From contig CAYVYK010000002.1 of NCBI GenBank assembly GCA_964455675.1, forward strand, positions 7,791 to 71,790: 64,000 bases of DNA. The letters are read 5' to 3'. Made by a program: the position numbers and the translations under genes. This document shows, piece after piece, positions 32,070-56,866 of the stretch. Positions within the stretch are counted from its first letter, which is position 1, and every line of letters begins with the position of its first letter. The notes under the pieces are model-generated. The model saw only the letters and a program-made list of their open reading frames with translations, was not told the DNA's origin and ran no database searches. The stretch is from an uncultured Methanosarcinales archaeon (GTDB lineage Archaea > Nanobdellota > Nanobdellia > Woesearchaeales > CAYVYK01).

Positions 32070-33077
32070 CTACCGTGAAAGTCTGGCGATGAGCTCGTCC
32101 GCATCGGTGTAGATTCGCGTGCCAACCGGAAGTGCTCTCCAGTTGCGAACCTGCTCACCGGTCATGTGACCTTTGGGAGTGATGTAGAGAGTGTTTGCGT
32201 CGTCGTATTTCGCGCCCACCAACTGATACGCAGTCTGACCTCTGCCTAGGACGTATTCATGATGAGCAGGTTCATCTCCTGAAGCCAGAAAATTGTACTT
32301 GATGTTCGACCCGGCTTTGAGCGTAATTGTTCGTCCGTCCGCAAGTTTGAGAGTTCCATTTTTTTGAGGGACTGCCGTTTCAGGGACAATCCTTCCAGCT
32401 GCAACATCAGGGTCTTCGTCAGCCCAGTGGACTCCTAGCTTCTGCATGTCAACCGAGTTGGCACATTTTTTCCCTCGTTGCCTGAGTATTGCAGTTCCAT
32501 TTTTTAATTTTACCCGTTGTTCGTACACGCGTACTTGGCTGTGTTTAAGCACATGATCGTCATCCACTTGGTATCTTGTTTTGAGCTCTCCGATGAGCCA
32601 TGCTCCGCTAGCGTATTGTTCAGGCGTCAATTCCTTTGCATACGTCCCTTCAAATTCTATTCCAAGAGATCTACTATTCAGATATTCCTGCCCGTTCCAA
32701 ACGCTTGGTCCTGCGTGCTCTGCTCGTTCACGTTCTGGTACGATGGAGTAGATGGTTCCGTCTTTTCTGACAAGGTATTGAGCAGAATGATTATTTCGTA
32801 GCGTTTCAAGCGCGCCCGAGAAACCGCCTTCAGTAGTATGAATGATGATGTATTCTGTCGTCTTTCGTACCTTGCCGGGATTCTCCGCAACTTGGTGCGA
32901 TCGAACGATGTCAGTAAGCGGTGCGATAGCGTTGAGTGGCTGTGCTCGAAGTGGGGATGCGCTCCGCATGCTGTGTGATACAACATAGGTGACTCCCGCA
33001 GTCCCAAGAACCGCTGCAAGTATCCCGACTCCAATTTTAGATTTCCATAGACTGTTATGGAGAGGTTCTGACATCAC
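32070..33077 (-). CDS. N-acetylmuramoyl-L-alanine amidase (Amidase_2/PGRP domain), membrane-anchored, with C-terminal extra domain
   Basis: N-terminal TM anchor; IIIHTTEG ... AEHAGPSVWNGQEYLNSRSLGIEFEG matches the zinc-amidase PGRP/T7-lysozyme core; extra ~150-aa C-terminal region. Confidence 0.7.
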   Translation of the reverse strand: MMSEPLHNSLWKSKIGVGILAAVLGTAGVTYVVSHSMRSASPLRAQPLNAIAPLTDIVRSHQVAENPGKVRKTTEYIIIHTTEGGFSGALETLRNNHSAQYLVRKDGTIYSIVPERERAEHAGPSVWNGQEYLNSRSLGIEFEGTYAKELTPEQYASGAWLIGELKTRYQVDDDHVLKHSQVRVYEQRVKLKNGTAILRQRGKKCANSVDMQKLGVHWADEDPDVAAGRIVPETAVPQKNGTLKLADGRTITLKAGSNIKYNFLASGDEPAHHEYVLGRGQTAYQLVGAKYDDANTLYITPKGHMTGEQVRNWRALPVGTRIYTDADELIARLSR

Positions 33078-40455: not shown

Positions 40456-40706
40456 TCACCTTAGCTTCTCTCGTTATCGTCAAGGGGAGAGAGGCAACTT
40501 TATAAACGTTGTGTTTCGATCCCTGGATGTATGATAGGTATATTAGTATAGTCATTAGTATATTAGTAGTGCTATATTATTAATTAGTATATAAATATAT
40601 ACTTAAGTATATCTATATTATTATATGTATACTAGTATGGTAAATAAGTCCCAACCAGATCATCACCGATACTGTGGTGTTGAATCAAACGTAAGACCTG
40701 GTGGTA
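40456..40706. promoter_or_regulatory. AT-rich promoter region of the exosome superoperon with reiterated TAGTATA(T) / TATATTAGTA units
   Basis: Seen directly: gtatattagtatagtcattagtatattagtagtgctatattattaattagtatataaatat. Confidence 0.3.
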
Positions 40707-42472: not shown

Positions 42473-43690
42473 CTAGATCAGGTCCTGGAACGATGGGGGT
42501 CGGTTCACGTCCTGGACATTGATGGTGACATCTGCTGTTGATGATGTCTTGCCATCGGACGCAGTTATGGTCACTACATGTGTTCCCTGGTCGCTGAATC
42601 CGGTTTGCTTCGTGCTTGTCGTCATCCATCCGGAGTACGTAACAGTGACGGGATCGCCGTCAGCGTCTTGCACAACAGGTGTGAGTACAACAAGGTCGTT
42701 CTCGCGCACATTGATCGGACTTTGAATCTGGATCGTAGGTGCGGAGTTCTGCTGTTCAACCGTGAGGTTAAACCGGACGCTGGTCTCAAGGAATCCGTCA
42801 CTTGCGGTAACGGTAATCATTTTGACTCCAACATCCTCCTCTTCAGGTCTCCATGACCCCGATTCGTCAAGTGGTTCGCTAAACTTGTAGGATATGACAT
42901 CCCCATCAGGATCGCTTCCTTGCGGTTTCACGGTAACTTTCTGTCCTGCTTTGATGGTCACTGCGTCAATCGGACTTATGACTGGTGCGCGGTTGACGTT
43001 CAATATTTTAAGTGTGACTGTTCTCTGCGTCGCACTCTTGCCATCGTCTGCAGTGATCGTTACCTGGTAGGTTCCAGCGTCATCATATGTCGTCAGTTTG
43101 GAGTTGCCGGTCATCCATCCACTATAGCTGATCTGTACCTGATCTCCATCATTATCAGTGACTGACGGATTGAGTTCGATCTTATCACCCTCGCGGAATG
43201 TAAGTTCCCCAAGGTCTTTTATGATCGGTGGCGCATTTCGCGGCTCAACGATAATGAGTACGTCCTGGCTGACGATGCTCTTTCCATCCGATGCGGATAT
43301 CTTGATCTTGTACTGGCCGGCATCGCCGATCTTTGTCTGCCATGTTCCATCCGCTGCGAGCGGCGAACTGAATGTGTATGTCACGGGATCCCCGTCAGGG
43401 TCGGTGACCCGTAGATTCGGGAAACTCACAACGTCTCCCTCGCGTACCTTAAGTATAGGTACCTCATTGACATTGACGCCTTCACTTGGTTCAGACGTTT
43501 CTGTTGGTGGTGGCGTTATCGTCACCAGGGGTGTCTCTTCTGGAGTCTCGATGCCTGGCGGCGTACCTATGCCGTTCGGCAGCAAATCCATCCCGCTGAG
43601 ATTCTCCTCAACGACTGGTGGCGTATATGTACAGCCTACCAAGATCAACAAGAAGAATGCACTTATCCACTGTAAATGTGTTAATCTCAT
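42473..43690 (-). CDS. Secreted lipoprotein-like protein with four cadherin/Ig-like repeats
   Basis: Signal plus LVGCTY lipobox-like; four ~95-aa repeats (VTITASDGK...NVNRAP/PP, D-rich). Confidence 0.6.
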   Translation of the reverse strand: MRLTHLQWISAFFLLILVGCTYTPPVVEENLSGMDLLPNGIGTPPGIETPEETPLVTITPPPTETSEPSEGVNVNEVPILKVREGDVVSFPNLRVTDPDGDPVTYTFSSPLAADGTWQTKIGDAGQYKIKISASDGKSIVSQDVLIIVEPRNAPPIIKDLGELTFREGDKIELNPSVTDNDGDQVQISYSGWMTGNSKLTTYDDAGTYQVTITADDGKSATQRTVTLKILNVNRAPVISPIDAVTIKAGQKVTVKPQGSDPDGDVISYKFSEPLDESGSWRPEEEDVGVKMITVTASDGFLETSVRFNLTVEQQNSAPTIQIQSPINVRENDLVVLTPVVQDADGDPVTVTYSGWMTTSTKQTGFSDQGTHVVTITASDGKTSSTADVTINVQDVNRPPSFQDLI

Positions 43691-43844: not shown

Positions 43845-44453
43845 CTACTGTTGAAAATACCGTCGTGCTGCCCATGCACCAAGAAGTATGAGTGCAGCAT
43901 ACCATACTCCTGCACCGATAATGCGAATGAGTGCGTCTTCAAAAAACTGCATGGGATACATCCGGATGATGAGGGAGTTGACGTCAAAGATCCATGTCCC
44001 TGATTTGAAGAACAATTCATGGAATCCATAAAAAAGTCCCGTAAAGAGTGATCCTGCGATGATGACGAGGATGAGTGACAAAGCAAGATGCACTCCCGAA
44101 CCGTAGAGTAATACCGTGACCGCTTCACGAAAGCCGTGCTTTTTCCATTCATACCATACCACGATACTGCAGAGGAGAAGCGCGATCATGGCGGATATCT
44201 CGATACTAAGGATGATCACTCGCACATCACGCATATGCGCCCGTTCTTCATCTGTAAAGGGGACACCATCGATTGTTGATGAGAAACCGGTGAGATAGCG
44301 CGCAACAGATGCGTGATACTCTGTTGGTTCTGGTATCCCAAGGTGTATTCGTTCGTTTTCGTAGAAGCCACTATCAAGAAGTACAGTCATGAGAGCCAGA
44401 CCGCAGACAAGGATTGGAACGGATACCGCGCCTAGAATAATCGTTGCTCGCAT
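43845..44453 (-). CDS. Integral membrane protein (DUF1461-like)
   Basis: 202 aa, 4-5 TM helices. Confidence 0.45.
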   Translation of the reverse strand: MRATIILGAVSVPILVCGLALMTVLLDSGFYENERIHLGIPEPTEYHASVARYLTGFSSTIDGVPFTDEERAHMRDVRVIILSIEISAMIALLLCSIVVWYEWKKHGFREAVTVLLYGSGVHLALSLILVIIAGSLFTGLFYGFHELFFKSGTWIFDVNSLIIRMYPMQFFEDALIRIIGAGVWYAALILLGAWAARRYFQQ

Positions 44454-46363: not shown

Positions 46364-47224
46364 CTAGCCAGTATCAGAATCTTGTTTTTCCGATAGCTGG
46401 TTTATAAAGGAAAGTACCTGCAACCTGAGGAGCACAAACATCGGCATGAAGAGTATGATGAATGCTGGTGGCATGAGCGCTGCATGGATCATCCCAAGTA
46501 GCATGACCACAAATATGCCGCATGCTGCAATCAAACAGACAAGGAAATAGTTCGTGAATACCTTTAGGGTTCTGAGGACTCCGGTATGGAACACAAGCAT
46601 TGTCGCTTTTGTAATCCGATGCTTGAGTAGGTACGCGTGATGGAGCGGAACAAAGTAGAGAATGCAGAGCATAAGGAAAAAGAAGGTGAAGCTCCAGATC
46701 TCCTTAAAGAATGGTACGTAGAGGACACTCGTGGCATACCCGAACAGTAATCCAACGAGTAGCACAAACCACCCGACATTGACTGCCATGACGCGTCCAA
46801 GGTATGTGATAATCGAGGCTTTTTCCGGATGGCCTCCAAGGAGGTACCATCCAAGTCCTCCAAATATGGACCAGCACACGTACGCGAAGATGAGTAGTAC
46901 AATGAAGAGCAGCGTCGCCTGGTGGAGGTATGCTTCAATCTCAATCTGTGTTGAGGCAAGTTTTGGGATGTAGGACGCACTGACCGATTCCACATTGATA
47001 TAGTTCAGAGCAGGTGCAATCATTTCGTTTGCATTCTTGAGTATTTCAAGGATTGCCGGAACCACGCGTACACCGACTAATCCAATTAGGAAGATGAGCG
47101 CGATGTCCATAAGAAATGATATGAATGCTGCAAGGGGTGCCTTGCGCACAAGGTGCACGTTCTGGACGAGCAATTCCACAACTGAATTGGTTTTATGAGT
47201 TTCCGTCTTTTGAGCCTTTGTCAA
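46364..47224 (-). CDS. Integral membrane protein, function unknown
   Basis: 286 aa, 7-8 TM. Confidence 0.45.
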   Translation of the reverse strand: MTKAQKTETHKTNSVVELLVQNVHLVRKAPLAAFISFLMDIALIFLIGLVGVRVVPAILEILKNANEMIAPALNYINVESVSASYIPKLASTQIEIEAYLHQATLLFIVLLIFAYVCWSIFGGLGWYLLGGHPEKASIITYLGRVMAVNVGWFVLLVGLLFGYATSVLYVPFFKEIWSFTFFFLMLCILYFVPLHHAYLLKHRITKATMLVFHTGVLRTLKVFTNYFLVCLIAACGIFVVMLLGMIHAALMPPAFIILFMPMFVLLRLQVLSFINQLSEKQDSDTG

Positions 47225-47384
47225 TTGATCACCAGACCAGTATTCCAGTATTTTTACACGTAAGTATTGTCAAACGGTCATCAAATCTTTTCATGCCATT
47301 TCTTTTCATGATATTTTTTCACGCTATTTTCATGCTATTTATAGTCAGTTCATGACTTCATGCATACTCATATGCTCATATTGC

Positions 47385-50300
47385 TTATGTCACAACCACT
47401 TGCAGTGGCCTGCCATCGCGGGTGTTGCCGTTGTTGTCTTCTGCGCGGAATACGAGGTCATACGTCGCTGCTGCCCCACCAGTCATTTCGCTGAATGCAA
47501 ACTGGTATAGTACCTCTGTGCTTCCAGAGGGTGACTCGCGCTTGATCCCGTCTCGGACGACGGATTCCTTTCCTGCTGAATTTACCGTCAGTTTGACTTT
47601 TTTGACGCCGCTTGGCGAAACGCCCTGACCGGTATCTCCAAAATCAACCACCGGGATATCAATATAATAATCTTTACCTCGGGATACTTCATATTTGTCC
47701 TCTTTGGTCTCTACGAGTTTGTATTGGTCCCCTTCCTTGTAGTACATGGTGGTAGTTCGTAGTTCGGGGGGTGTGACGTCTCTCTTGTCGATCCCTCCGG
47801 CTGTTGTCGAACCGATTGGTTCTGCGCAGATTGCCGAGAATTGGTACTCGAACTTCTGCGCAGTGCCGAGGTATTGCGCGACGCTGTTCTGGTTTGGTTC
47901 GATCGTCCCGTCTGCTGCCTGAATTCCTTCATATATCGTGAACGTTCCAGTCCACGCAACTGGCCTATTCTGATCACACTGCTGAGTTCCCTGCTCGGTC
48001 TGGGTGACTGCTCGGCCGACGAGAACGCTTGCCGTCAGTTTGCCAAAGTCGTTTATTGACGTTCTCAGTGTAATAATGGATTCTCCGCAGTAGTATGTCT
48101 TTCCATCCCCTCTGCAGCGAATCACTGATCCACTTGGTTCAAATGTCTGCACTCCAGTGTTTGGATTCTTCACAAAGTCTCCTGCGATGTATTCAAGATA
48201 TTTCTCTCCGTTCGGTCCAAGCTCTTCAGATACCTGCACTTTCATCGTCGATGAACATTGAACAGGTGTCACGATGCCAAGGTTGTTCACTCCCTCGATG
48301 ACGCATGTGCTGCTGAGCGTGCCAGGTCCTGTGGTGAAATCTGTTCGTGATATCGGAGGGAATGATCGTGTGAGAGGAATGGTTTCACGCCCGTTGAAAG
48401 CGAGGACCTCTGGATTGTTGTAATTATTGTAAATGGATAATCCGTTCTGGTTATTCACATTCACGACGAGATATTTGGTGTACGGACACTCGCTTTCGGA
48501 AACGCCCTCGCATCCTGCCTCATCTGGCATTTTCTGGCTGACCTCGACATCAAATCCAAGGGAATCTCCGATCCTGAATGGATCACCTAGGGCCTTTGGC
48601 CTTCCAATGATGCGCGCCCAATTCTCAGTGCCTGTCTGGAATCCGCAGCGATAACTTAGTGTTGCGACGTCAAATCCGCAAATGCTTGGTGGCGGCGCTC
48701 CTTCCTGTCCAATGTCGCATTCCACGCTGTCCTTGACTGTTTGGTCTTTATTGTCCTTGTACTCCCATGTGAGTCGTGCTTTGTTGTATCGATAGGGCAT
48801 GGTTGTTGTCCAAAAGATGTCCCCTATGTCCTGTTCGCTCAGAACATCTCCTGCTTTCATGTATCCGCCCTTGATGATTGTGGTTTGTGGTGTTCCGCGT
48901 TGGCAGTCGCATAGTCCGTTCTCGAATCCTTCGCTCGCCTTGCATTCTGGTGTTGCGCTGCATTCCATCTCAAGGTACCATCGTATGTCCGCTCCAGCGA
49001 CAAGTCCCGCTCCAAAGTGATACGTCCATGTTGTCATTCCTGGTACTGGCCTTGAGACTTGATTGAATGACATGAATCGCCGCTGGCATGGATAAAGGAG
49101 TCCTTGGCTTTTCACTGGAACAGGGAATCCTTCGCCCTCGACGAGTCCTTCAACGTCGAGATCCCAAACACCAGTAAACGCCCATAAGCAGATCGCGTGG
49201 ATGAGCCGTTTTTCAACAAACAGCGTTTTATAGAGTGTCGTTCCGCCATAGCGATTTGTTATTGAGTCTGACACGCTGTTTCCCGCGCTCGTGAGGGCAC
49301 CGAAGAGATTTCCCATCGTGTCGCTTCCTCCTCGCTGCAGTCCTGAGGCGTACTTCTCCGTGAAGCAATTGATCATGTCCCAGATGAGATCACAGATGTA
49401 GACGCTGAGGACTGCCCTGCAGATGCCTGCGCTTCCGTCTCCTGTCTGGATGATGCTGTTAAAGCATGTCTTAACGGCTGTGAGAATTGCCTTCCACAGC
49501 CGCAGGTAGCTCGTGATTGCAGGCAAGCATACGCACTGGATGCTGCGAAGAAGACTGCTAGTTGGATCAACAATGTATTCCTGGTCCGTTATTCCAATTT
49601 TTGCGTAAATCCGCTCCCACACGTCGTCCGTTTCCTGCCGGTTGATCATTCTGCCATCGGACGCGCACCCGATGACATCCGCGTGGAACTTCTCTTTGAG
49701 TGAAAGCTTGAGCTGGTCGCGTGTCCTTTGATCCGCGTCGTCTTTTGGCATTTCAAACATATCGGTAACGTCCTGGACTGGCCTGAATACGAGGTACGAG
49801 TTTACGGGGCTATCCCCCATGCTGCCAGTTTCATAGTCACTTACACCTGCATTCTCGACTTCTATTGCGCGAAGATCCTTTCGTTCCACGATATAGCCTC
49901 GGTGGATGTAATACAGTTTGTCCTCCGCTGCCCTGCTTCCTCCGATCGATTCTGCGAAGTCTTCAGCGCTGATGATGCGGTAGTAAATGTTTCTGTCGTC
50001 ATTATACGAAAAGACATGCCCTCCAGTGCACGGATATGTTTTTCCCCGGATTTCTCGGGGTTCTCCTTCCGCTTCCCGCATGGCTGACTCTTTTCCAGCT
50101 TCGTCAGGGTAGAATATCACATTTCCAAGGAGTGTGTTCACAGCTCGTCCAGATGGAGAGTACGGGTCCGATACAAGCGCTCTGCTTTCTGATCCATATC
50201 GGAAGTAGGTGTTGACGAGTTGTGGTACCGCCTTTCCATCAGCATCACAGAATCCAGCGACGGCGTTCCAGAGTTTGTTGCAGTCTCCCTCGTTTGAACG

Positions 50301-53300
50301 GTCGTTCGCCTGTTCTGCGGCGAGGCATTTTGATTCTTTCAGCTCGTTCATGATGACGCATGCCGAATTCCAGGTGTTCATGTATTCTGTGCTGCAGCAT
50401 TTTTCGTTTCTTTCGTGAAGTTTACTGCAGTCAACATCCGTTTCTGCGTTTGCCTCACCAGCAACAGTTCCTGCAACAGTCCCGCTTCCTCCGGCTGCGT
50501 TTCCTTTGCCGTTTTGTTGATAGTAATTGTACTGCTTGATGATCTCGTTATAATCATCCGTCGGTACTTCCGCGCAGTCGCTTCCAGCTTTGATAATTGC
50601 TCCATTCCCGCCTCCAAGGTTGACATCAGTGTTCCTTTTATTGCGCTGGTTGTCCTTGATGTATTTCTGGAATGTTGGCGCGCTCGGACAGAACATGCGA
50701 TCGCAAACCCAGTGAGAGAGCTTTTCGAATTTCTGCCTGGTCTCGATTGCCCCTTGGCATGCAAGGCAAGCTTCATTCTTCTGTTTTGATCCTTCATTAT
50801 CTGCTGGATAGACAACATTACATTGTCCCGTCGCTGCGACATCCTTCTTGAACACTCCGCCAGTAAACATTTGGAGGATGTTGCTGTATTCGCAGTTCCA
50901 GCTCTCTTGGAAAGCTAAGACAAACTGGAATAGCCATCCAAAGAGGCACGCGTAAAGCGTGTATTTTTGCACGGTCGCGAGTGGCTTGAGTACTTTGTCT
51001 ATTAGCTCAACCGCTTTTTCTAGGACCTGCACCGATGTCTTCAGGAAGTTGTTTGGGATTACGCTTGGGGGAATGCGTTTGTCTATCGGTATTTCGAGCA
51101 GCCAGCACTGTCTTTGGATGATATTGTTCACTCGGAATCCTTCTTCAGTCATGTCAAGGTATGCTGCCTGGAAGTTCTCGTCGATTTTTTCTTCGATCGT
51201 GAGTTCCATGACGAGTGGTACCCTGATGCATCCTGTTCCCTGGAGGATGCATCGGTCCTCATGGAGCATGCTGATGTTTCTTTCCTTTTCGTAGATTGTC
51301 CAATTCTTTCCTTCACGCGGCTGCTCATTGCCCTGGTAGGACGGATCATATGCGCGGATGTTGACATTGATATACCCGGCCGTGTAGTCCTTGTTCCACA
51401 TTGATCGCACGGTGACTTTATCCGTGTCATAATGGTTTTTCCAGTTTTGCGATAGCGTTTGGAACGTGATCCTTGGTTGCCTTGTGATTTTGTATCGCGG
51501 TGTTGATGTCTGTCCGTAGCTCGTCTCGTTCTGTATGCTTGCCGTCGATGAGAGGTTAACCGCAAATCCTATTTTTGCAAGGCCTTCGAGGATGAGCCTT
51601 GGATTGAGCATGGAGGGGGTGGGTTGTGATATGACAACGTTGAACCAGTTGCCATACCCGCACATCGCGTAGATAATGTCTTTTCGCTCTTCAGCTTCAA
51701 GTCCAGACGTTCCTCGCGCAACAATTCGAACATGATTCATCCATGCGTCGGAGCTCTCGATAAGTCCTTGGACTGATTCTCCTTCTTCTCCCGTTTCTGA
51801 GCTGAACTTGATGTCTCTTTCGAGGGGGATGTGCATTGTGAATGAGTAGTCCTCATGGGTTACGGTAACGTTGACAGGACTTGTCTTGTTGTTGACATAC
51901 GCGTAGAGCGTTGCCTTTTTGTCGAGCTTTCCTCGGACATAGATATCGTTCACATAGCTTGGAGTCAATTCATCAAGGTTGATCTCAACGAATTTTGGCG
52001 CCTGATTTTCAAACACGACTTTCTTTTCCACGGTCACTTTGTTTCCTGCTCGATCCTCGGCCGTGATGGTAACATAGTTCTCGCCCTGGCCCAGCGACAC
52101 CGACTGTGAGAAGTCGCCGCTCAGTGTGAGTTTTTGTGCTTGTTTGAATATCGAACAGGTGAGGTTGAACGTATTCGGCGTCCGGTTGAACTGCTGGCCT
52201 CCAAGAGGTGTTGTGATGATGAGCGACTCTGATAGGACACCTTCATTGCATGAGTCATCAATTGCGCTCACCTGGTACCGATAGGTAGATCCGGAATCAA
52301 CGAATGCGCCCGTATCTCGAAAGTTCGTCGTCCTCGTTGACGTGATCCTCATTCCGTTTCTGTAGATGACGTATTCTCGCAGGTCTTTCTCGGTGTTGCG
52401 ATCCCATCGTAATTCGATCGTGTTCGTGTATACCGTTCCGTTCGTCAGTCCCTTGACCCGTGCTGGTGCTTCTCTGTCTGCTTTGTTGATAACGTCGAAT
52501 GTTATCGTCGCGAGTTCATCCACACTTCCATTCACTGTTATTGCTTGTGTCTTTGCCGTGTCATTGATAGTTCCAATGACAAGCTTGGGAGGCCTGGTAT
52601 CGACGGTGACGGCGAACTCCTTGGCAAGTGTTCCGCCAAGTTGGTCGGTCGCTTCCACTTTAAGCTTATTCTCTCCTTCGTTGAGCATAATTCCGGCGAT
52701 CATGAAGCTTCCGTTCGAGTTTGATCGCACGGATCTGCGAAGTTGTCCTCCCATGAAGAATTTGACGTCGCTGTTCACTTTTGTCGTGCCGGTGACATCA
52801 ATCAATTTTTGGCTCATGAATGGTGGAAGCGTGACGTTCAGGAATGGCTGTACGGTGTCTTCTCCCGTGACAAGCGTTGATTCTGTGCTATTCGTGCATA
52901 CGTTTGCGACGCTGCATGAGCTCACGAGGTACTTGTAACTTTTCCCTTCCTGCAAGGAGAGGACGATCGCGTGCTGGAAAACATATCCTGGAGAGGTATC
53001 AGTGGTGTTTGCTTTCTCAATGCCATAGTACACTTTGGATGTTGCAGGAACATCGGTTGTCCAGCCGATTGTTGCGGTTGTCTTCGTCACACTTTGTATT
53101 TTGACATTTGTTACTTGTGGAGGGTTGAGATTTGGCTGCTGGGCCGTCGTGAAATGGTAGTTTGATCCGAGATTGTCAAGCGTAACGGACTCTCCTTGTT
53201 CGTCGATTCCAACAATCCTGTAGTAGTAGAGTGTTTGGCTTTCCAATGGCGAGAGGACGACGCTGTGGGTCGTTGATAACTGTGCTGATTCACCGATGAG

Positions 53301-53546
53301 GCTGAGGCTTCCCATCGATCCATACTCCACGCGTCCTGTTGACGGAACATCGCTCGTCCACGAGATTGTGGCTTGATTAAATCCAACGCTTGTGTGCGGC
53401 GGTGTCGAAGGCGTGATCGTCAACGCGTACGTCATATGGATAGGTATGAAGATGATGAGTTGTATCATAAATATCGCCACCACTCGAAGGACTGCTTGCG
53501 ATGGCTTCAGAGAACTCCATGGTTGCTCGTCTGCCATGTTGCTCAC
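47385..53546 (-). CDS. Giant (2053 aa) N-terminally anchored surface protein: FN3-like and Ig-like domains followed by ~1300-aa cysteine-rich region of unknown fold
   Basis: Uninterrupted 6.2-kb ORF; N-terminal hydrophobic anchor; two purple-acid-phosphatase-N-like FN3 domains, a further FN3 and Ig-like segments; >40 N-x-S/T sequons; ~70 Cys in the C-terminal two-thirds; GTG start overlapping the upstream stop. Confidence 0.8.
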   Translation of the reverse strand: MSNMADEQPWSSLKPSQAVLRVVAIFMIQLIIFIPIHMTYALTITPSTPPHTSVGFNQATISWTSDVPSTGRVEYGSMGSLSLIGESAQLSTTHSVVLSPLESQTLYYYRIVGIDEQGESVTLDNLGSNYHFTTAQQPNLNPPQVTNVKIQSVTKTTATIGWTTDVPATSKVYYGIEKANTTDTSPGYVFQHAIVLSLQEGKSYKYLVSSCSVANVCTNSTESTLVTGEDTVQPFLNVTLPPFMSQKLIDVTGTTKVNSDVKFFMGGQLRRSVRSNSNGSFMIAGIMLNEGENKLKVEATDQLGGTLAKEFAVTVDTRPPKLVIGTINDTAKTQAITVNGSVDELATITFDVINKADREAPARVKGLTNGTVYTNTIELRWDRNTEKDLREYVIYRNGMRITSTRTTNFRDTGAFVDSGSTYRYQVSAIDDSCNEGVLSESLIITTPLGGQQFNRTPNTFNLTCSIFKQAQKLTLSGDFSQSVSLGQGENYVTITAEDRAGNKVTVEKKVVFENQAPKFVEINLDELTPSYVNDIYVRGKLDKKATLYAYVNNKTSPVNVTVTHEDYSFTMHIPLERDIKFSSETGEEGESVQGLIESSDAWMNHVRIVARGTSGLEAEERKDIIYAMCGYGNWFNVVISQPTPSMLNPRLILEGLAKIGFAVNLSSTASIQNETSYGQTSTPRYKITRQPRITFQTLSQNWKNHYDTDKVTVRSMWNKDYTAGYINVNIRAYDPSYQGNEQPREGKNWTIYEKERNISMLHEDRCILQGTGCIRVPLVMELTIEEKIDENFQAAYLDMTEEGFRVNNIIQRQCWLLEIPIDKRIPPSVIPNNFLKTSVQVLEKAVELIDKVLKPLATVQKYTLYACLFGWLFQFVLAFQESWNCEYSNILQMFTGGVFKKDVAATGQCNVVYPADNEGSKQKNEACLACQGAIETRQKFEKLSHWVCDRMFCPSAPTFQKYIKDNQRNKRNTDVNLGGGNGAIIKAGSDCAEVPTDDYNEIIKQYNYYQQNGKGNAAGGSGTVAGTVAGEANAETDVDCSKLHERNEKCCSTEYMNTWNSACVIMNELKESKCLAAEQANDRSNEGDCNKLWNAVAGFCDADGKAVPQLVNTYFRYGSESRALVSDPYSPSGRAVNTLLGNVIFYPDEAGKESAMREAEGEPREIRGKTYPCTGGHVFSYNDDRNIYYRIISAEDFAESIGGSRAAEDKLYYIHRGYIVERKDLRAIEVENAGVSDYETGSMGDSPVNSYLVFRPVQDVTDMFEMPKDDADQRTRDQLKLSLKEKFHADVIGCASDGRMINRQETDDVWERIYAKIGITDQEYIVDPTSSLLRSIQCVCLPAITSYLRLWKAILTAVKTCFNSIIQTGDGSAGICRAVLSVYICDLIWDMINCFTEKYASGLQRGGSDTMGNLFGALTSAGNSVSDSITNRYGGTTLYKTLFVEKRLIHAICLWAFTGVWDLDVEGLVEGEGFPVPVKSQGLLYPCQRRFMSFNQVSRPVPGMTTWTYHFGAGLVAGADIRWYLEMECSATPECKASEGFENGLCDCQRGTPQTTIIKGGYMKAGDVLSEQDIGDIFWTTTMPYRYNKARLTWEYKDNKDQTVKDSVECDIGQEGAPPPSICGFDVATLSYRCGFQTGTENWARIIGRPKALGDPFRIGDSLGFDVEVSQKMPDEAGCEGVSESECPYTKYLVVNVNNQNGLSIYNNYNNPEVLAFNGRETIPLTRSFPPISRTDFTTGPGTLSSTCVIEGVNNLGIVTPVQCSSTMKVQVSEELGPNGEKYLEYIAGDFVKNPNTGVQTFEPSGSVIRCRGDGKTYYCGESIITLRTSINDFGKLTASVLVGRAVTQTEQGTQQCDQNRPVAWTGTFTIYEGIQAADGTIEPNQNSVAQYLGTAQKFEYQFSAICAEPIGSTTAGGIDKRDVTPPELRTTTMYYKEGDQYKLVETKEDKYEVSRGKDYYIDIPVVDFGDTGQGVSPSGVKKVKLTVNSAGKESVVRDGIKRESPSGSTEVLYQFAFSEMTGGAAATYDLVFRAEDNNGNTRDGRPLQVVVT

Positions 53547-55546
53547 TCTAGCCTCGGGACGAGCTCGTCCGCGTATTCTCCGGTCTCAAAATAATTTGCG
53601 ATCATTGCCTGGTCTTTCTCCGTTACGGGTGTTGGCCTGAATTCGAACATGTTGAAGATGATAGTGTCTGAGGAAGCTACATCATCGTAGCTTGGACTCC
53701 AGGTCCCATCATATCCTCCAAATATGTACTCCCTCGCGTACCCGCGTTTGCTTCCCATGATCTTGACGTCATAGACTATTCCCTCGTCAAGAACGAGGTC
53801 GATTGTTGATCCTGGTGATGGGTAACTGGCATATTGTTCATAGGTTGCGTTTTTCACTGACAGCGATATGGTGACGTTTTCTCTCTCATCAAGGGGTATG
53901 GACACGGGAATGAGCGTTCCCGTCTCGCTGAAGTAGAGATTCTTCCGGACTTCGTAGTTCATCTTCTTTAATCGTTTCATGGGGATCTCTATTGTGTCCT
54001 GTTCCATGTTTAATAATTGTTCCTTCGCCGGAAGGTAGCCTTGTTTTTCACCAAGGATGTAGGGGTATGCACAGTTTGAAGGAAGGGTGGTGCGTAGCTG
54101 GTAGTGTCCATCCTCTCCTCCCGTGATCCCAAGCTCGCAGTAGTCGGAAATGCATAGGTAGCTGATGTTGACGCCGCTAATTTCTTGGCTGTACATTCCG
54201 CCAAACATGCCCATTGCCTTGATCGTAACATCATTTCCTTCCTGCATGCAGAGGTCGCGTGACTGATCTGGGACGTCGAAGAATGTCACGCCGATATCCT
54301 CACGCACGCCCCGATTCTGCTTGATTTGCACAGGCAGGAAGAATGAATAGACATACCCTTGACCGCCATACGATTCCGTGTCGGTGATGGATATTTGCAC
54401 AGGATAGACGACGTCGTATGTAAAGTGATAGAAGTTTATGCAGAGGAACTGGAGGTATTGCTCCGCTCCCCTCGCGCTTTTGGATTTTAGGTATCCGTTG
54501 TGGCTTGGATTGCCGCGGAAGTACATGCCCCATCTTGGTTCGTAGCTAAAACCGACTCGCATGCTAGGTTCGCTCGCCCCAGCATCGACGAGCATGTGGA
54601 AATAGTAGTATGCATCATCCGGTAGACTGAATGTTGGCAAATTTTTGATTTCCCCAGTTTTCTCGTCACGTGGAAGTCCTCTGAACGATTCATATGTTTC
54701 ACGCGGTGCTTCGAATGGCGTGTAGATCGTGTTCTCGACGCGCATCATAGGGATGTTGTATGCGAGGAGTTCTTGCACCTTTGCCCTAAGGCTGCTAATC
54801 TTCCACTTTTCGTGTGTTTTTTGTGTCCCGCATTCAAAAGCGAGGTTCGTGAATGGAATATCAGGATGCCCTGCCATGAGGTCGATCGTGACATTTTCCA
54901 TGAACAGGTATTCATTCTCTGCATCAACAATTTTTTTGGCGAGCGCAAGGATTTTCTTCATACGGACGGGGACATGTATAACGAATTCCTGGATGTCTGC
55001 CCTCGTTTGATTTCCGAAATTGGCTTGCGCACGAAGGAGGTATGTCGTTCGCACTTCAATATCTTCGTTCGTGAAGAGGGTGACTGTCTTCGGGCTTGAG
55101 AGTATCTGCACAGTGTAGTGCTCCTGGAATGCGGTGAAGTTGTTGACGCAGTAGGGGAGCTGTTCATTCATGTAGTTGTTGAATTGCTGTGCAATGACGT
55201 TGAGGTCGGGAAGCTGGCTTTTCCCCCGGTAGTACCACAGAGGACTTTTAAAGTACCCTTGTGGATCCAGATTTACGTACGCCTGAGGTTTTCTAAGTAT
55301 TTCTGGGGGGATCGTGATATAGCCTCCCTGGACTCCCATGAGTTGAACAGCGTTTTCCGCGACATCCTCCATACAGCTTTGCACATAAAGTTGGAGGGGA
55401 ACGATCTCTGGGGGGGTGAGAGCTTCTGGTTGTGTATGCTCGTATTGTCGTCGGTAGAAGATGAATGATAGGATGAGTATGATTGCGATAATGATTACTA
55501 GAATAAAGACTGTCAACTGTCCTTTCACGCACCTCTTTTTTCGCAT
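53543..55546 (-). CDS. N-terminally anchored 667-aa extracellular protein, function unknown, coupled to the giant protein gene
   Basis: N-terminal basic segment plus TM (MRKKRCVKGQLTVFILVIIIAIILILSFIFY); many N-glycosylation sequons; 4-nt stop/start overlap with the giant gene. Confidence 0.7.
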   Translation of the reverse strand: MRKKRCVKGQLTVFILVIIIAIILILSFIFYRRQYEHTQPEALTPPEIVPLQLYVQSCMEDVAENAVQLMGVQGGYITIPPEILRKPQAYVNLDPQGYFKSPLWYYRGKSQLPDLNVIAQQFNNYMNEQLPYCVNNFTAFQEHYTVQILSSPKTVTLFTNEDIEVRTTYLLRAQANFGNQTRADIQEFVIHVPVRMKKILALAKKIVDAENEYLFMENVTIDLMAGHPDIPFTNLAFECGTQKTHEKWKISSLRAKVQELLAYNIPMMRVENTIYTPFEAPRETYESFRGLPRDEKTGEIKNLPTFSLPDDAYYYFHMLVDAGASEPSMRVGFSYEPRWGMYFRGNPSHNGYLKSKSARGAEQYLQFLCINFYHFTYDVVYPVQISITDTESYGGQGYVYSFFLPVQIKQNRGVREDIGVTFFDVPDQSRDLCMQEGNDVTIKAMGMFGGMYSQEISGVNISYLCISDYCELGITGGEDGHYQLRTTLPSNCAYPYILGEKQGYLPAKEQLLNMEQDTIEIPMKRLKKMNYEVRKNLYFSETGTLIPVSIPLDERENVTISLSVKNATYEQYASYPSPGSTIDLVLDEGIVYDVKIMGSKRGYAREYIFGGYDGTWSPSYDDVASSDTIIFNMFEFRPTPVTEKDQAMIANYFETGEYADELVPRLE

Positions 55547-55606
55547 GCGATTTTCCCTAGTTTCCCCGCTGGCTTTTTAAGAATGACAGTTTATATACTT
55601 TTCGAA

Positions 55607-56866
55607 TTATTCAGACGCAGGCTTTCGCAAGCGTATTCTGCCGGGATGCAGATGGTTCCAGGCTTCTTCAAGTTCTGTAAGAATGGTGTCTGCAGTTATG
55701 CTATCTAGGTCCTTAAGTGCTTCTTTGAGATCGTGTTCCGCATGTGCAATCGTGGCGCTTGCGCTGGTCAGGGTTTCTTGGAGCTTGTCCTCGTTTGTTT
55801 TCGCTCCGTTATCCTGGATACTCTCCGTGAGCTCCCGCACCTTTTTTGCCATCGCGTTATACTCGGAAAGGTACTTGGCGAGTTTTTGGACTGTAAGAGC
55901 GTCTATGACCGATAGTGTCTTTTCCTTCCTTCGTTCCTCTATTTCGACCTCATTTGATTGAATGACTTTCTTGAGTTTTTGGAGCGCTCGTACTATTTTC
56001 AGTTCATAATCGTTCACAAGTGCCTGTACAGGGTGAGAGAGGTACGGTTTGATGATCGCTTCTTCTTCAAACGCGATATATGCTAGCTTTTTCAACGGTT
56101 TTTCGAGGAGTTGGAATTCATCAATGAATTCCTTCTCATGTTTTCTGACGGCTTCCTGTGCTTTCAGGAGTTCCTGGTGCATTTTCTCATGATTTGCATA
56201 GATTTCGCTCTCATAGAACTCCCGTAATTTCTGGTCCGCTTCATCCTTTGCGATTCGTGCATCCTCAAGCAATTTTCGGAGCTTATCATGCTCTTCCTGT
56301 TTCTTTCTCCTTAAATCGTGACGCTCGTCAAGAGTTGATATTTTTCTCATAATGTGACGATATGTGTCAAGTTTGAGGTCGGTTAGTCGTGTCTTTAGAT
56401 CGTCATATTCGTTGTCGACATCCTTGATTTTCTGGGCGACTATTTCGCTCTCATGCGCAAAGAACTCCTGCAATATTTTGTATGCTCTCACCGTGCTAAG
56501 CGAAAACCGATCAATCTCTTTTTGGAAATTCGCAAGGCTTTCTTCGATCTGGTCGAGGCTTTCGGGCACATGGAGGTCACGCTCGAGCATTCTCGCCATT
56601 TTAACGTACGTTGCTCGGTTTCCCTGCATGAAATGCTTTGCTTTGTCCGGAATGTTGGGATTTCGGAGTTCCGCTTTCTCGAGGGCATCGAGCGCTTCCA
56701 GAAGTTCTCTTCGCTTGTCAGCAATTTCCTTTGACTTTTCTGTGAGGTAGTTCTTGAGTTCTTCCTCGCCTGTCATGATTTTTTCTGCTGCCTTCGCGCG
56801 CAGTTCATCGATCGTAAGCTCCTCTGGTGGTTCCTCTGCAAAGAATTTCTTCAGGAAGTCGAGCAT
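55607..56866 (-). CDS. Cytoplasmic all-helical coiled-coil protein (419 aa), first gene of the giant-protein operon
   Basis: No TM; Glu/Lys/Leu-rich heptad-like sequence throughout. Confidence 0.6.
   Translation of the reverse strand: MLDFLKKFFAEEPPEELTIDELRAKAAEKIMTGEEELKNYLTEKSKEIADKRRELLEALDALEKAELRNPNIPDKAKHFMQGNRATYVKMARMLERDLHVPESLDQIEESLANFQKEIDRFSLSTVRAYKILQEFFAHESEIVAQKIKDVDNEYDDLKTRLTDLKLDTYRHIMRKISTLDERHDLRRKKQEEHDKLRKLLEDARIAKDEADQKLREFYESEIYANHEKMHQELLKAQEAVRKHEKEFIDEFQLLEKPLKKLAYIAFEEEAIIKPYLSHPVQALVNDYELKIVRALQKLKKVIQSNEVEIEERRKEKTLSVIDALTVQKLAKYLSEYNAMAKKVRELTESIQDNGAKTNEDKLQETLTSASATIAHAEHDLKEALKDLDSITADTILTELEEAWNHLHPGRIRLRKPASE

Follow-up and report, generated by a model that had tools for sequence, protein, structure and literature searches.

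A conserved gene pair for a membrane-anchored protein and a giant, probably secreted cysteine-rich protein in Woesearchaeota: a candidate surface display complex

Introduction

Which proteins work together in the display of a giant cysteine-rich protein at the surface of an archaeal cell, and how might this protein be held there? This question is raised by a locus in a 64,000-nucleotide (nt) stretch of contig CAYVYK010000002.1 from an uncultured archaeon, referred to here as the window. An earlier note on this DNA described three open reading frames (ORFs) of 419, 667 and 2053 amino acids (aa) as a three-gene operon for a candidate surface apparatus of host interaction. These ORFs, here called A (A419), B (B667) and C (C2053), are present exactly as described, co-directional on the minus strand, and each of them has homologues. 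A further ORF of 286 aa at 46364-47224, here called D, was overlooked. It is found that the conserved operon consists of B and C, commonly with D, and we assign a probability of about one half to the reading in which the membrane-anchored and possibly pilin-like B protein, together with D, displays the secreted giant protein C as an adhesion or recognition complex.

Woesearchaeota belong to the most widespread archaea that have not been cultured, and the way in which they make contact with partner cells is not known. The relatives of B (19 in a collection of 5.8 billion proteins), C (23 matches) and A (13 matches, 391-419 aa in length) all come from metagenome-assembled genomes (MAGs) of Woesearchaeota/Nanoarchaeota, and the other genes of the window are archaeal housekeeping genes (proteasome alpha, SBDS, exosome Rrp4/41/42, LonB, SRP54, Kae1, eIF2-gamma and HisRS). 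Judged from its genes, the window is archaeal DNA of the Woesearchaeota/Nanoarchaeota type, and because of this gene content and this taxonomy of the homologues, the earlier assignment to a DPANN organism is taken to be right.

Results

Conservation of the B-C pair and its association with D

The B-C(-D) operon is present across Woesearchaeota, with at least 275 species-level loci. The 275 B loci were found by a pattern scan of species-representative genomes, and the neighbourhood counts given here rest on 80 loci that were retrieved from this set. C directly follows B on the same strand in 78 of the 80 loci, and in the remaining two the contig ends at this point. Among 79 loci, 38 have an overlap of 4 or 8 nt between the stop of B and the start of C; in the window the overlap is GTGA, formed by the TGA stop of B and the GTG start of C, as had been read previously. 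The D gene is located just downstream of C in 43 of 55 loci, just upstream of B in 41 of 63 loci, and on at least one side of the pair in 44 of 48 loci, and in one locus (L090) it overlaps the end of C. The D family comprises proteins of ~250-290 aa with about six hydrophobic helices. When a hidden Markov model of this family was built without the window sequence, it matched the D ORF of the window over its full length (E 1.3e-26), and this ORF is its sole match in the window. No Pfam or PDB match was obtained for D. The synteny that was proposed as a check of the A-B-C triplet in related genomes is thus observed for B and C and is not observed for A, which lies within 10 kb of the pair in none of the 80 loci; the operon has to be redrawn without A and with D.

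Most relatives have a second, paralogous pair, located 7-8 kb upstream (for example at 1624-7172 of L001, 103-3312 of L003 and 395-5888 of L005, with ~30 further loci). This pair consists of a B paralogue (~720-790 aa), followed by E, a secreted protein of ~1000-1090 aa that is rich in Ig domains and cysteines, and in most relatives it is accompanied by a variable secreted protein, F. This upstream half is not present in the window.

The source annotations of the homologues read 'hypothetical' or 'fibronectin type III domain-containing', and full-text literature searches found no description of the B-C-D module. Overall, and with the exception of the Ig/FN3 stalk of C, the B, C and D proteins appear to be new families that have no relative in Pfam, NCBIfam or PDB.

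A separate observation concerns the intergenic region between C and D. Six C[AG]TGAA(AA) repeats with a spacing of 9-15 nt occur at 47288-47365 (in the sense of the minus strand), three of the six copies of CATGAAAA in the window are part of this cluster and lie within a span of 47 nt, and a TATAAATA box at 47335-47342 adjoins it. This cluster may be an array of regulator binding sites upstream of D.

C is predicted to be a secreted protein with a glycosylated stalk and a conserved cysteine-rich core

In the C protein, hydrophobic sequence is confined to one segment at the N-terminus. In the homologues this region has the n-h-c organization of signal peptides, ending in VSFA, VEA or VFA with AxA-like sites (for example MKKGRIAIMLAILVIMIPIVEA↓Q and ...LPVSFA↓Q, where the arrow marks the presumed cleavage), commonly followed by (A)LxIS, and the sequence in the window reads ...IFMIQLIIFIPIHMTYA↓LTITPS. 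No transmembrane (TM) helix, sorting signal or hydrophobic segment is found in the C-terminal region. Because the homologues have Sec signal peptides and C has no other hydrophobic segment, it is probable that C is secreted, with its signal peptide cleaved at this predicted site, and the earlier description of C as an N-terminally anchored protein is doubtful. In the NCBI gene model (P0020, 2016 aa) translation starts at M38, by which the segment 53435-53546 (minus strand) of the signal peptide, C aa 1-37, is dropped; the GTG start used here is preceded by GAGG, 5 nt upstream.

The tandem Ig/FN3-like domains behind this signal peptide are those of a generic FN3/Ig surface protein. They are matched by Pfam solely at aa 57-511 (Pur_ac_phosph_N, fn3, Big_13 and Glucodextran_B), in agreement with the earlier placement of such modules within the first ~480 aa, and the matches to PDB profiles are also FN3/Ig only (best E 1.6e-15). 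The remainder of C is indeed cysteine-rich, having 43 of the 48 cysteines after aa 760. It is not rich in N-glycosylation sequons, as had been stated, since all 15 N-X-S/T sites are found before aa 760 and none is found at aa 761-2053, where 8.7 are expected (P = 1.7e-4), including the C-terminal region at aa 1655-2053 (none versus 3.5 expected). The same distribution is obtained when averaging over 153 homologues, with 1.55 sequons per 100 aa in the stalk (1.3x expectation), 0.34 in the core (0.6x) and 0.29 in the C-terminal part (0.35x).

The conservation profile, for which 20 homologues were scored by their identity to C of the window, varies strongly along the chain. At aa 601-1100 the identity is 33-35%, except for aa 701-800, where it dips to 25%. 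An insert at aa 1101-1300 has 12-15%, the stretch at aa 1301-1500 has 44-50%, and the part beyond aa 1700 (aa 1701-2053) has 8-14%. The core of C therefore does not have the fast evolution that had been ascribed to the whole protein; fast evolution appears to be confined to the insert and the tail. No long repeats are present in the window that could be the template and variable repeats of a diversity-generating retroelement and so explain the hypervariable tail.

Characteristic motifs of the core are WVCDRxFCPSAPTFQKY, CVCLPAItSYL and YPCxRRF, and its invariant polar residues are D949, R950, D1386, R1432, Y1433, D1547 and R1586. The core profile matches 654 representative clusters among 1.84 billion, 403 of them at E<=1e-30, and the best 150 clusters are nearly all longer than 1,000 aa (range 660-3073 aa). 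No match of the core was obtained in Pfam, NCBIfam or the PDB sequences; these profile searches of the cysteine-rich region agree with the earlier statement that it matches no recognised fold or family. In a profile-profile comparison (hhalign), the core has a weak match of 70 columns to the E family (E 1e-3, probability 20%) at the CxCLPxI helix (CxCLPGI in E), a likeness that is suggestive and does not prove homology.

A surface or fusion protein of a virus or mobile element was also considered. This candidate is not supported: a Foldseek search of the viral folds in BFVD gave 0 matches at E<=1e-3, no relatives of B were found in IMG/VR, and the chromosomal context of the locus is conserved.

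B is a single-helix membrane protein with a prepilin-like N-terminus

The B protein has one hydrophobic helix, at the N-terminus (aa ~10-31, with a Kyte-Doolittle maximum of 3.45 over aa 4-35), in agreement with the single TM helix noted before. The AlphaFold2 (AF2) model, having a predicted local distance difference test (pLDDT) score of 84.8, shows a helix at aa 7-37. A Pro-rich linker, modelled with low confidence, joins this helix to an alpha/beta domain (aa ~46-420), and beta-sandwiches make up the C-terminal part. No fold match is found for the ~375-aa alpha/beta ectodomain. No match of B was obtained in Pfam or NCBIfam, and PDB sequence profiles for B, the C core, D, A and E gave nothing beyond FN3/Ig or coiled-coil noise. 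The ectodomain has eight conserved cysteines and six sequons, and the invariant polar residues of B are E210, E217, D222, H374, D378 and N411.

The most distinctive feature of B is its N-terminus. Of the ~81 intact B N-termini, 77 share the motif [KR][GA]↓Q-[IVL]-[TS]-[IVL]-F-I-I-x-G...Y, and 29 paralogues have it as well. The residue at position -1 is G (64%), A (29%) or S (8%), positions -2 and -3 are K or R in more than 80%, and Q at +1 is essentially invariant; in the window the site reads KG↓Q at aa 8-10. When searched in a six-frame translation of 1.4 Mb of DNA flanking related loci, this motif is found in ORFs of the B family only, and no small pilins that share it are present in this DNA. 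B thus has both a short basic leader ending in G, A or S before a hydrophobic segment and ~20 hydrophobic residues directly after the putative cleavage site, as class III signals do. In the EppA substrates of M. maripaludis, the leader has 5-13 aa and ends in Gly, with a conserved Gln at +1 and a conserved Glu at +5 (PMC3875500). The N-terminus of B resembles these archaeal class III (prepilin) signals of the EppA type, and its sequence conservation appears to go far beyond what a generic anchor needs.

Discussion

A proposed mode of surface display

It is possible that the module functions in the following way. B would be inserted with its N-terminus inside, by means of the highly conserved N-terminal helix, which would be either a class III (prepilin-like) signal with its alpha1 segment or a specific signal-anchor packed against D. 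Translation of C from the B mRNA would be coupled to that of B, and Sec would export the C protein with cleavage of its signal peptide; having no anchor of its own, C would be held at the surface by binding to the ectodomain of B. The N-glycosylated Ig/FN3 stalk of C would then space a disulfide-cross-linked, sequon-free core off the membrane, and the insert (aa ~1100-1300) and the C-terminal ~350 aa would bind partner cells or surfaces in a lineage-specific way. This reading is in agreement with the strict B-C linkage and the start/stop overlaps, the adjacency of D, the Sec peptides of C, and the single helix and near-invariant N-terminus of B, as well as with the sequon profile, the conserved core as compared with the hypervariable insert and tail, and the second paralogous pair. 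The earlier idea of a surface system for host attachment survives in that giant, extracellular C has a dedicated membrane partner, B, and changes in that D has to be added to the conserved partners, as has a second, paralogous pair in most relatives.

Several points weigh against this proposed display of C by B. Residue +5 of B is F or Y and not E, leaving the EppA-type signature incomplete; PF04021 (Class_IIIsignal) matched only one of ten B N-terminal peptides (E 2.1, 8.9 bits, with a cut-off of 23.7), and no Walker-A motif of a filament ATPase was found within 10 kb of the 80 loci or in the window, by a crude motif test. Formally, B would therefore not be counted as a class III signal protein of PF04021. 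The model of C is moderately confident (pLDDT 66), by which the lack of a known fold is weak evidence and the description of the core as a new fold is provisional. The conservation of the C core and the invariant E, D and H residues of B could equally mean catalysis. The contacts of B with C and with D are inferred, as are the disulfides and the adhesion role. Finally, the sole apparent B-C fusion (2644 aa, at 9732-17663 of L025) is an assembly-gap artefact, in which a run of N, translated as X, bridges the two genes, and it is therefore unusable as Rosetta-stone evidence.

Alternative interpretations

An unlikely but serious variant is that B and its paralogue are genuine class III signal subunits. 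An EppA/PibD-type peptidase would cleave them at G↓Q, and both would be built into the tip or base of a type IV filament whose genes lie elsewhere, with C carried as a PilY1-like tip adhesin. In favour of this, [KR][GA]↓Q[IV][TS][IV]F is followed by ~20 hydrophobic residues in B and the paralogues, and the leader ending in G and the Q at +1 match the M. maripaludis substrates. Filaments of the Epd-type 'system 1' occur in DPANN (bioRxiv 10.64898/2026.04.22.720090), Woesearchaeota express archaellins and therefore must have a prepilin peptidase (PMC11606122), and analogies exist with minor pilins and PilY1 and with modular pilins (PMC8179133). Nevertheless, the pilin-like status of B is not established, because of the Phe at +5, the unmatched PF04021 and the lack of a filament ATPase motif within 10 kb. 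Also, a continuous alpha1 helix is not seen in the AF2 model, where the Pro-rich linker splits the helix from the globular domain, small pilins with the B motif are lacking in the flanking DNA, and no A24 peptidase was found in the window. The statement in the earlier note that none of the three proteins resembles pilus components is accordingly weakened by the N-terminus of B.

It is improbable that B and C form a two-component surface layer (S-layer) or cell-wall scaffold like SlaA/SlaB, with C as the outer lattice and B as the membrane stalk. The lineage-wide occurrence of the module is as expected for such a scaffold, and so is an operon that encodes both a large glycoprotein for secretion and a smaller partner anchored in the membrane. 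However, the match to SlaB spans only generic beta-sandwich domains, at 8% identity, and B is anchored N-terminally rather than C-terminally and lacks a coiled-coil stalk. Most S-layer proteins are poor in cysteine and show little conservation, whereas the core of C has ~25 invariant cysteines. The S-layer interpretation is disfavoured because of this conserved cysteine-rich core, because a second paralogous pair is present in most genomes, and because MAGs of Woesearchaeota hold separately annotated, highly expressed S-layer genes (PMC11606122).

There is only a small chance that the function is enzymatic, such that the core of C, the N-terminal domain of B, or both are catalytic and act on the envelope of a partner or on maturing C, with the stalk positioning the enzyme. 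The invariant polar residues of both proteins (E210 to N411 in B and D949 to R1586 in C), and the conservation of the C core, which far exceeds that usual for adhesin domains, are compatible with catalysis. Most of the invariant positions of C are, however, Cys, Gly or Pro, which suggests structural roles.

Gene A and the A-B gap

The A protein has no cysteine, no sequon and no hydrophobic segment. Its earlier description as purely coiled-coil is doubtful: the 13 family members have invariant non-heptad motifs such as AELRNPNIPxRAKHFMxGNR, and ILQEFFAHES is a further invariant motif. Neither Pfam nor NCBIfam gave a match for A. In three other genomes (L007-L009), A sits between Rpr2 and phosphoglycerate kinase (PGK), with no B or C nearby. 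A directly precedes B solely in the window and in its closest relative, L091, whose B protein is 57% identical. In the short contig L090, which has the next-closest C relative, the partial ORF that precedes B shows no match to the A family. The 60-nt gap between A and B in the window contains an element that looks like a promoter of the type having a transcription factor B recognition element (BRE) and a TATA box, and is a candidate promoter of B-C (Table 1). At the same position L091 has TTCGAAAAGTTTATAAA, and the two sequences have TTCGAAAAGT(A/T)TATAAA in common, ~43 nt before the ATG of B.

The adjacency of A and B appears to be recent, because A is found beside Rpr2 and PGK elsewhere, is absent within 10 kb in the 80 loci, is otherwise adjacent solely in L091, and is separated from B by the promoter-like element. 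A belongs to a conserved family of helical proteins in Nanoarchaeota, ~415 aa long and usually encoded beside PGK and Rpr2, and most plausibly it serves a function of its own outside the module. That A works with B and C in an apparatus of cytoplasmic coiled-coil, adaptor and anchored effector, as proposed in the earlier note, and as the shared direction, the short gap and the arrangement in L091 might suggest, is highly unlikely in view of these same observations and of the partial ORF in L090.

Table 1. Features of the locus, with positions in the window.
Feature	Position	Strand	Description
A419	55607-56866	minus	419 aa, ATG; adjacent helical cytoplasmic protein, separate conserved Nanoarchaeota family
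BRE/TATA-like element TTCGAAAAGTATATAAA	55590-55606	minus	A-B gap; candidate B-C promoter, read directly in the sequence; TATA at 55590-55597
B667	53543-55546	minus	667 aa, ATG; predicted membrane-anchored partner protein
B N-terminus MRKKRCVKG↓QLTVFILVIIIAIILILSFIFY	55454-55546	minus	class III (prepilin)-like leader, then hydrophobic helix; conserved aa 1-31
C2053	47385-53546	minus	2053 aa, GTG; giant protein, probably secreted
C signal peptide, Sec-type	53421-53546	minus	aa 1-42; predicted cleavage ...IHMTYA↓LTITPS
C Ig/FN3-like stalk, sequon-rich	51708-53420	minus	aa ~43-613; 11 of the 15 sequons
C conserved Cys-rich core	48585-51707	minus	aa 614-1654; about 25 invariant Cys
C variable insert in core			aa ~1100-1300
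C C-terminal region	47388-48584	minus	aa 1655-2053; hypervariable beyond aa ~1700
D	46364-47224	minus	286 aa, polytopic (~6 TM); conserved flank of the B-C pair

Other features of the window

Four further observations were made in the window, outside the B-C-D module. The ORF at 42473-43690 (minus strand) encodes a 405-aa PKD/Big_9/cadherin-like surface protein that is 42% identical to the product of an equivalently placed gene downstream of the B-C locus in L001, and therefore the two genomes share some synteny beyond the module. The 335-aa ORF at 32070-33077 (minus strand) has an N-acetylmuramoyl-L-alanine amidase domain (Amidase_2, E 9e-25); its product would be a peptidoglycan hydrolase in an archaeal genome and could point to interaction with bacteria. 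The 202-aa ORF at 43845-44453 (minus strand) has, unusually for archaeal DNA, a match to Lit, the lipoprotein intramolecular transacylase of bacteria (E 2.8e-22). An AT-rich, imperfect tandem-like repeat of 41 nt is located at 40542-40631, in the intergenic region that separates the proteasome-alpha gene from the next ORF.

Implications

With its strict linkage, its translational coupling and its lack of characterised homologues, the B-C-D module is a concrete candidate for a structure of host or surface contact. The G↓Q site of B, the cysteine-rich core of C and its hypervariable insert and tail are offered as targets. The annotation is corrected by restoring the signal peptide to the NCBI model of C; B, C and D are unnamed in the databases. 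A further-reaching idea, which we regard as rather doubtful, is that B, C and D, together with the pair of the B paralogue and E and with F in most relatives, constitute an unrecognised, lineage-defining envelope machine of Woesearchaeota, built from new folds, that connects symbiont to host. If this is true, a pilin-like membrane subunit might, for example, present a giant, disulfide-locked 'docking head' of which the hypervariable tips set the host specificity, and the machine would represent a class of its own among the structures for contact between archaeal cells and not a variant of pili or S-layers.

Comparison with known systems

In kind, B-C-D would be a surface display or adhesion complex, possibly filament-associated, made of new families. 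Large adhesin-like proteins beside class III signal proteins recur in archaeal type IV filament loci (PMC4858521; bioRxiv 10.64898/2026.04.22.720090). When B and C are compared with these loci (Epd/system 1, system 2, subsystems 4A/4G) and with the bacterial minor pilins and PilY1, the leader of B ending in G or A, the following Q and the hydrophobic helix are similar, and so is the presence of a very large, Sec-secreted, Ig-rich and Cys-rich neighbour with a presumed role in adhesion. In contrast to these loci, no ATPase, platform or peptidase is found within or close to the B-C locus, which has neither a PilY1/DUF2341 match (a Pfam search of C finds neither the PilY1 beta-propeller nor DUF2341) nor a PF04021 match; B, with 667 aa, has an unmatched alpha/beta domain, and the polytopic D flanks the pair. 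The modular type IV pilins, such as PilB of Streptococcus sanguinis, also have a large module behind a pilin-type N-terminus, and in those the module has a direct role in adhesion (PMC8179133); they are, however, bacterial proteins with an E5 motif, and the fold of the pilin module is undetected in B.

The comparison with SlaA/SlaB of the Sulfolobales finds several differences. B and C have no sequence homology to these proteins, the polarity of the anchor is opposite, the C-terminal TM helix and coiled-coil stalk of the SlaB-type anchor are not seen in B, and B-C has many invariant cysteines, a conserved core and a paralogous duplication of the pair. The SPEARE proteins of nanohaloarchaea are reportedly very large extracellular proteins of host-dependent small-genome archaea, with a proposed role in host contact. 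C is likewise a very large, probably extracellular protein of small-genome archaea. By Pfam it has no protease, nuclease or other domain in common with SPEARE proteins, and the C family is distinct from them in being restricted to Woesearchaeota and in having a fixed set of partners.

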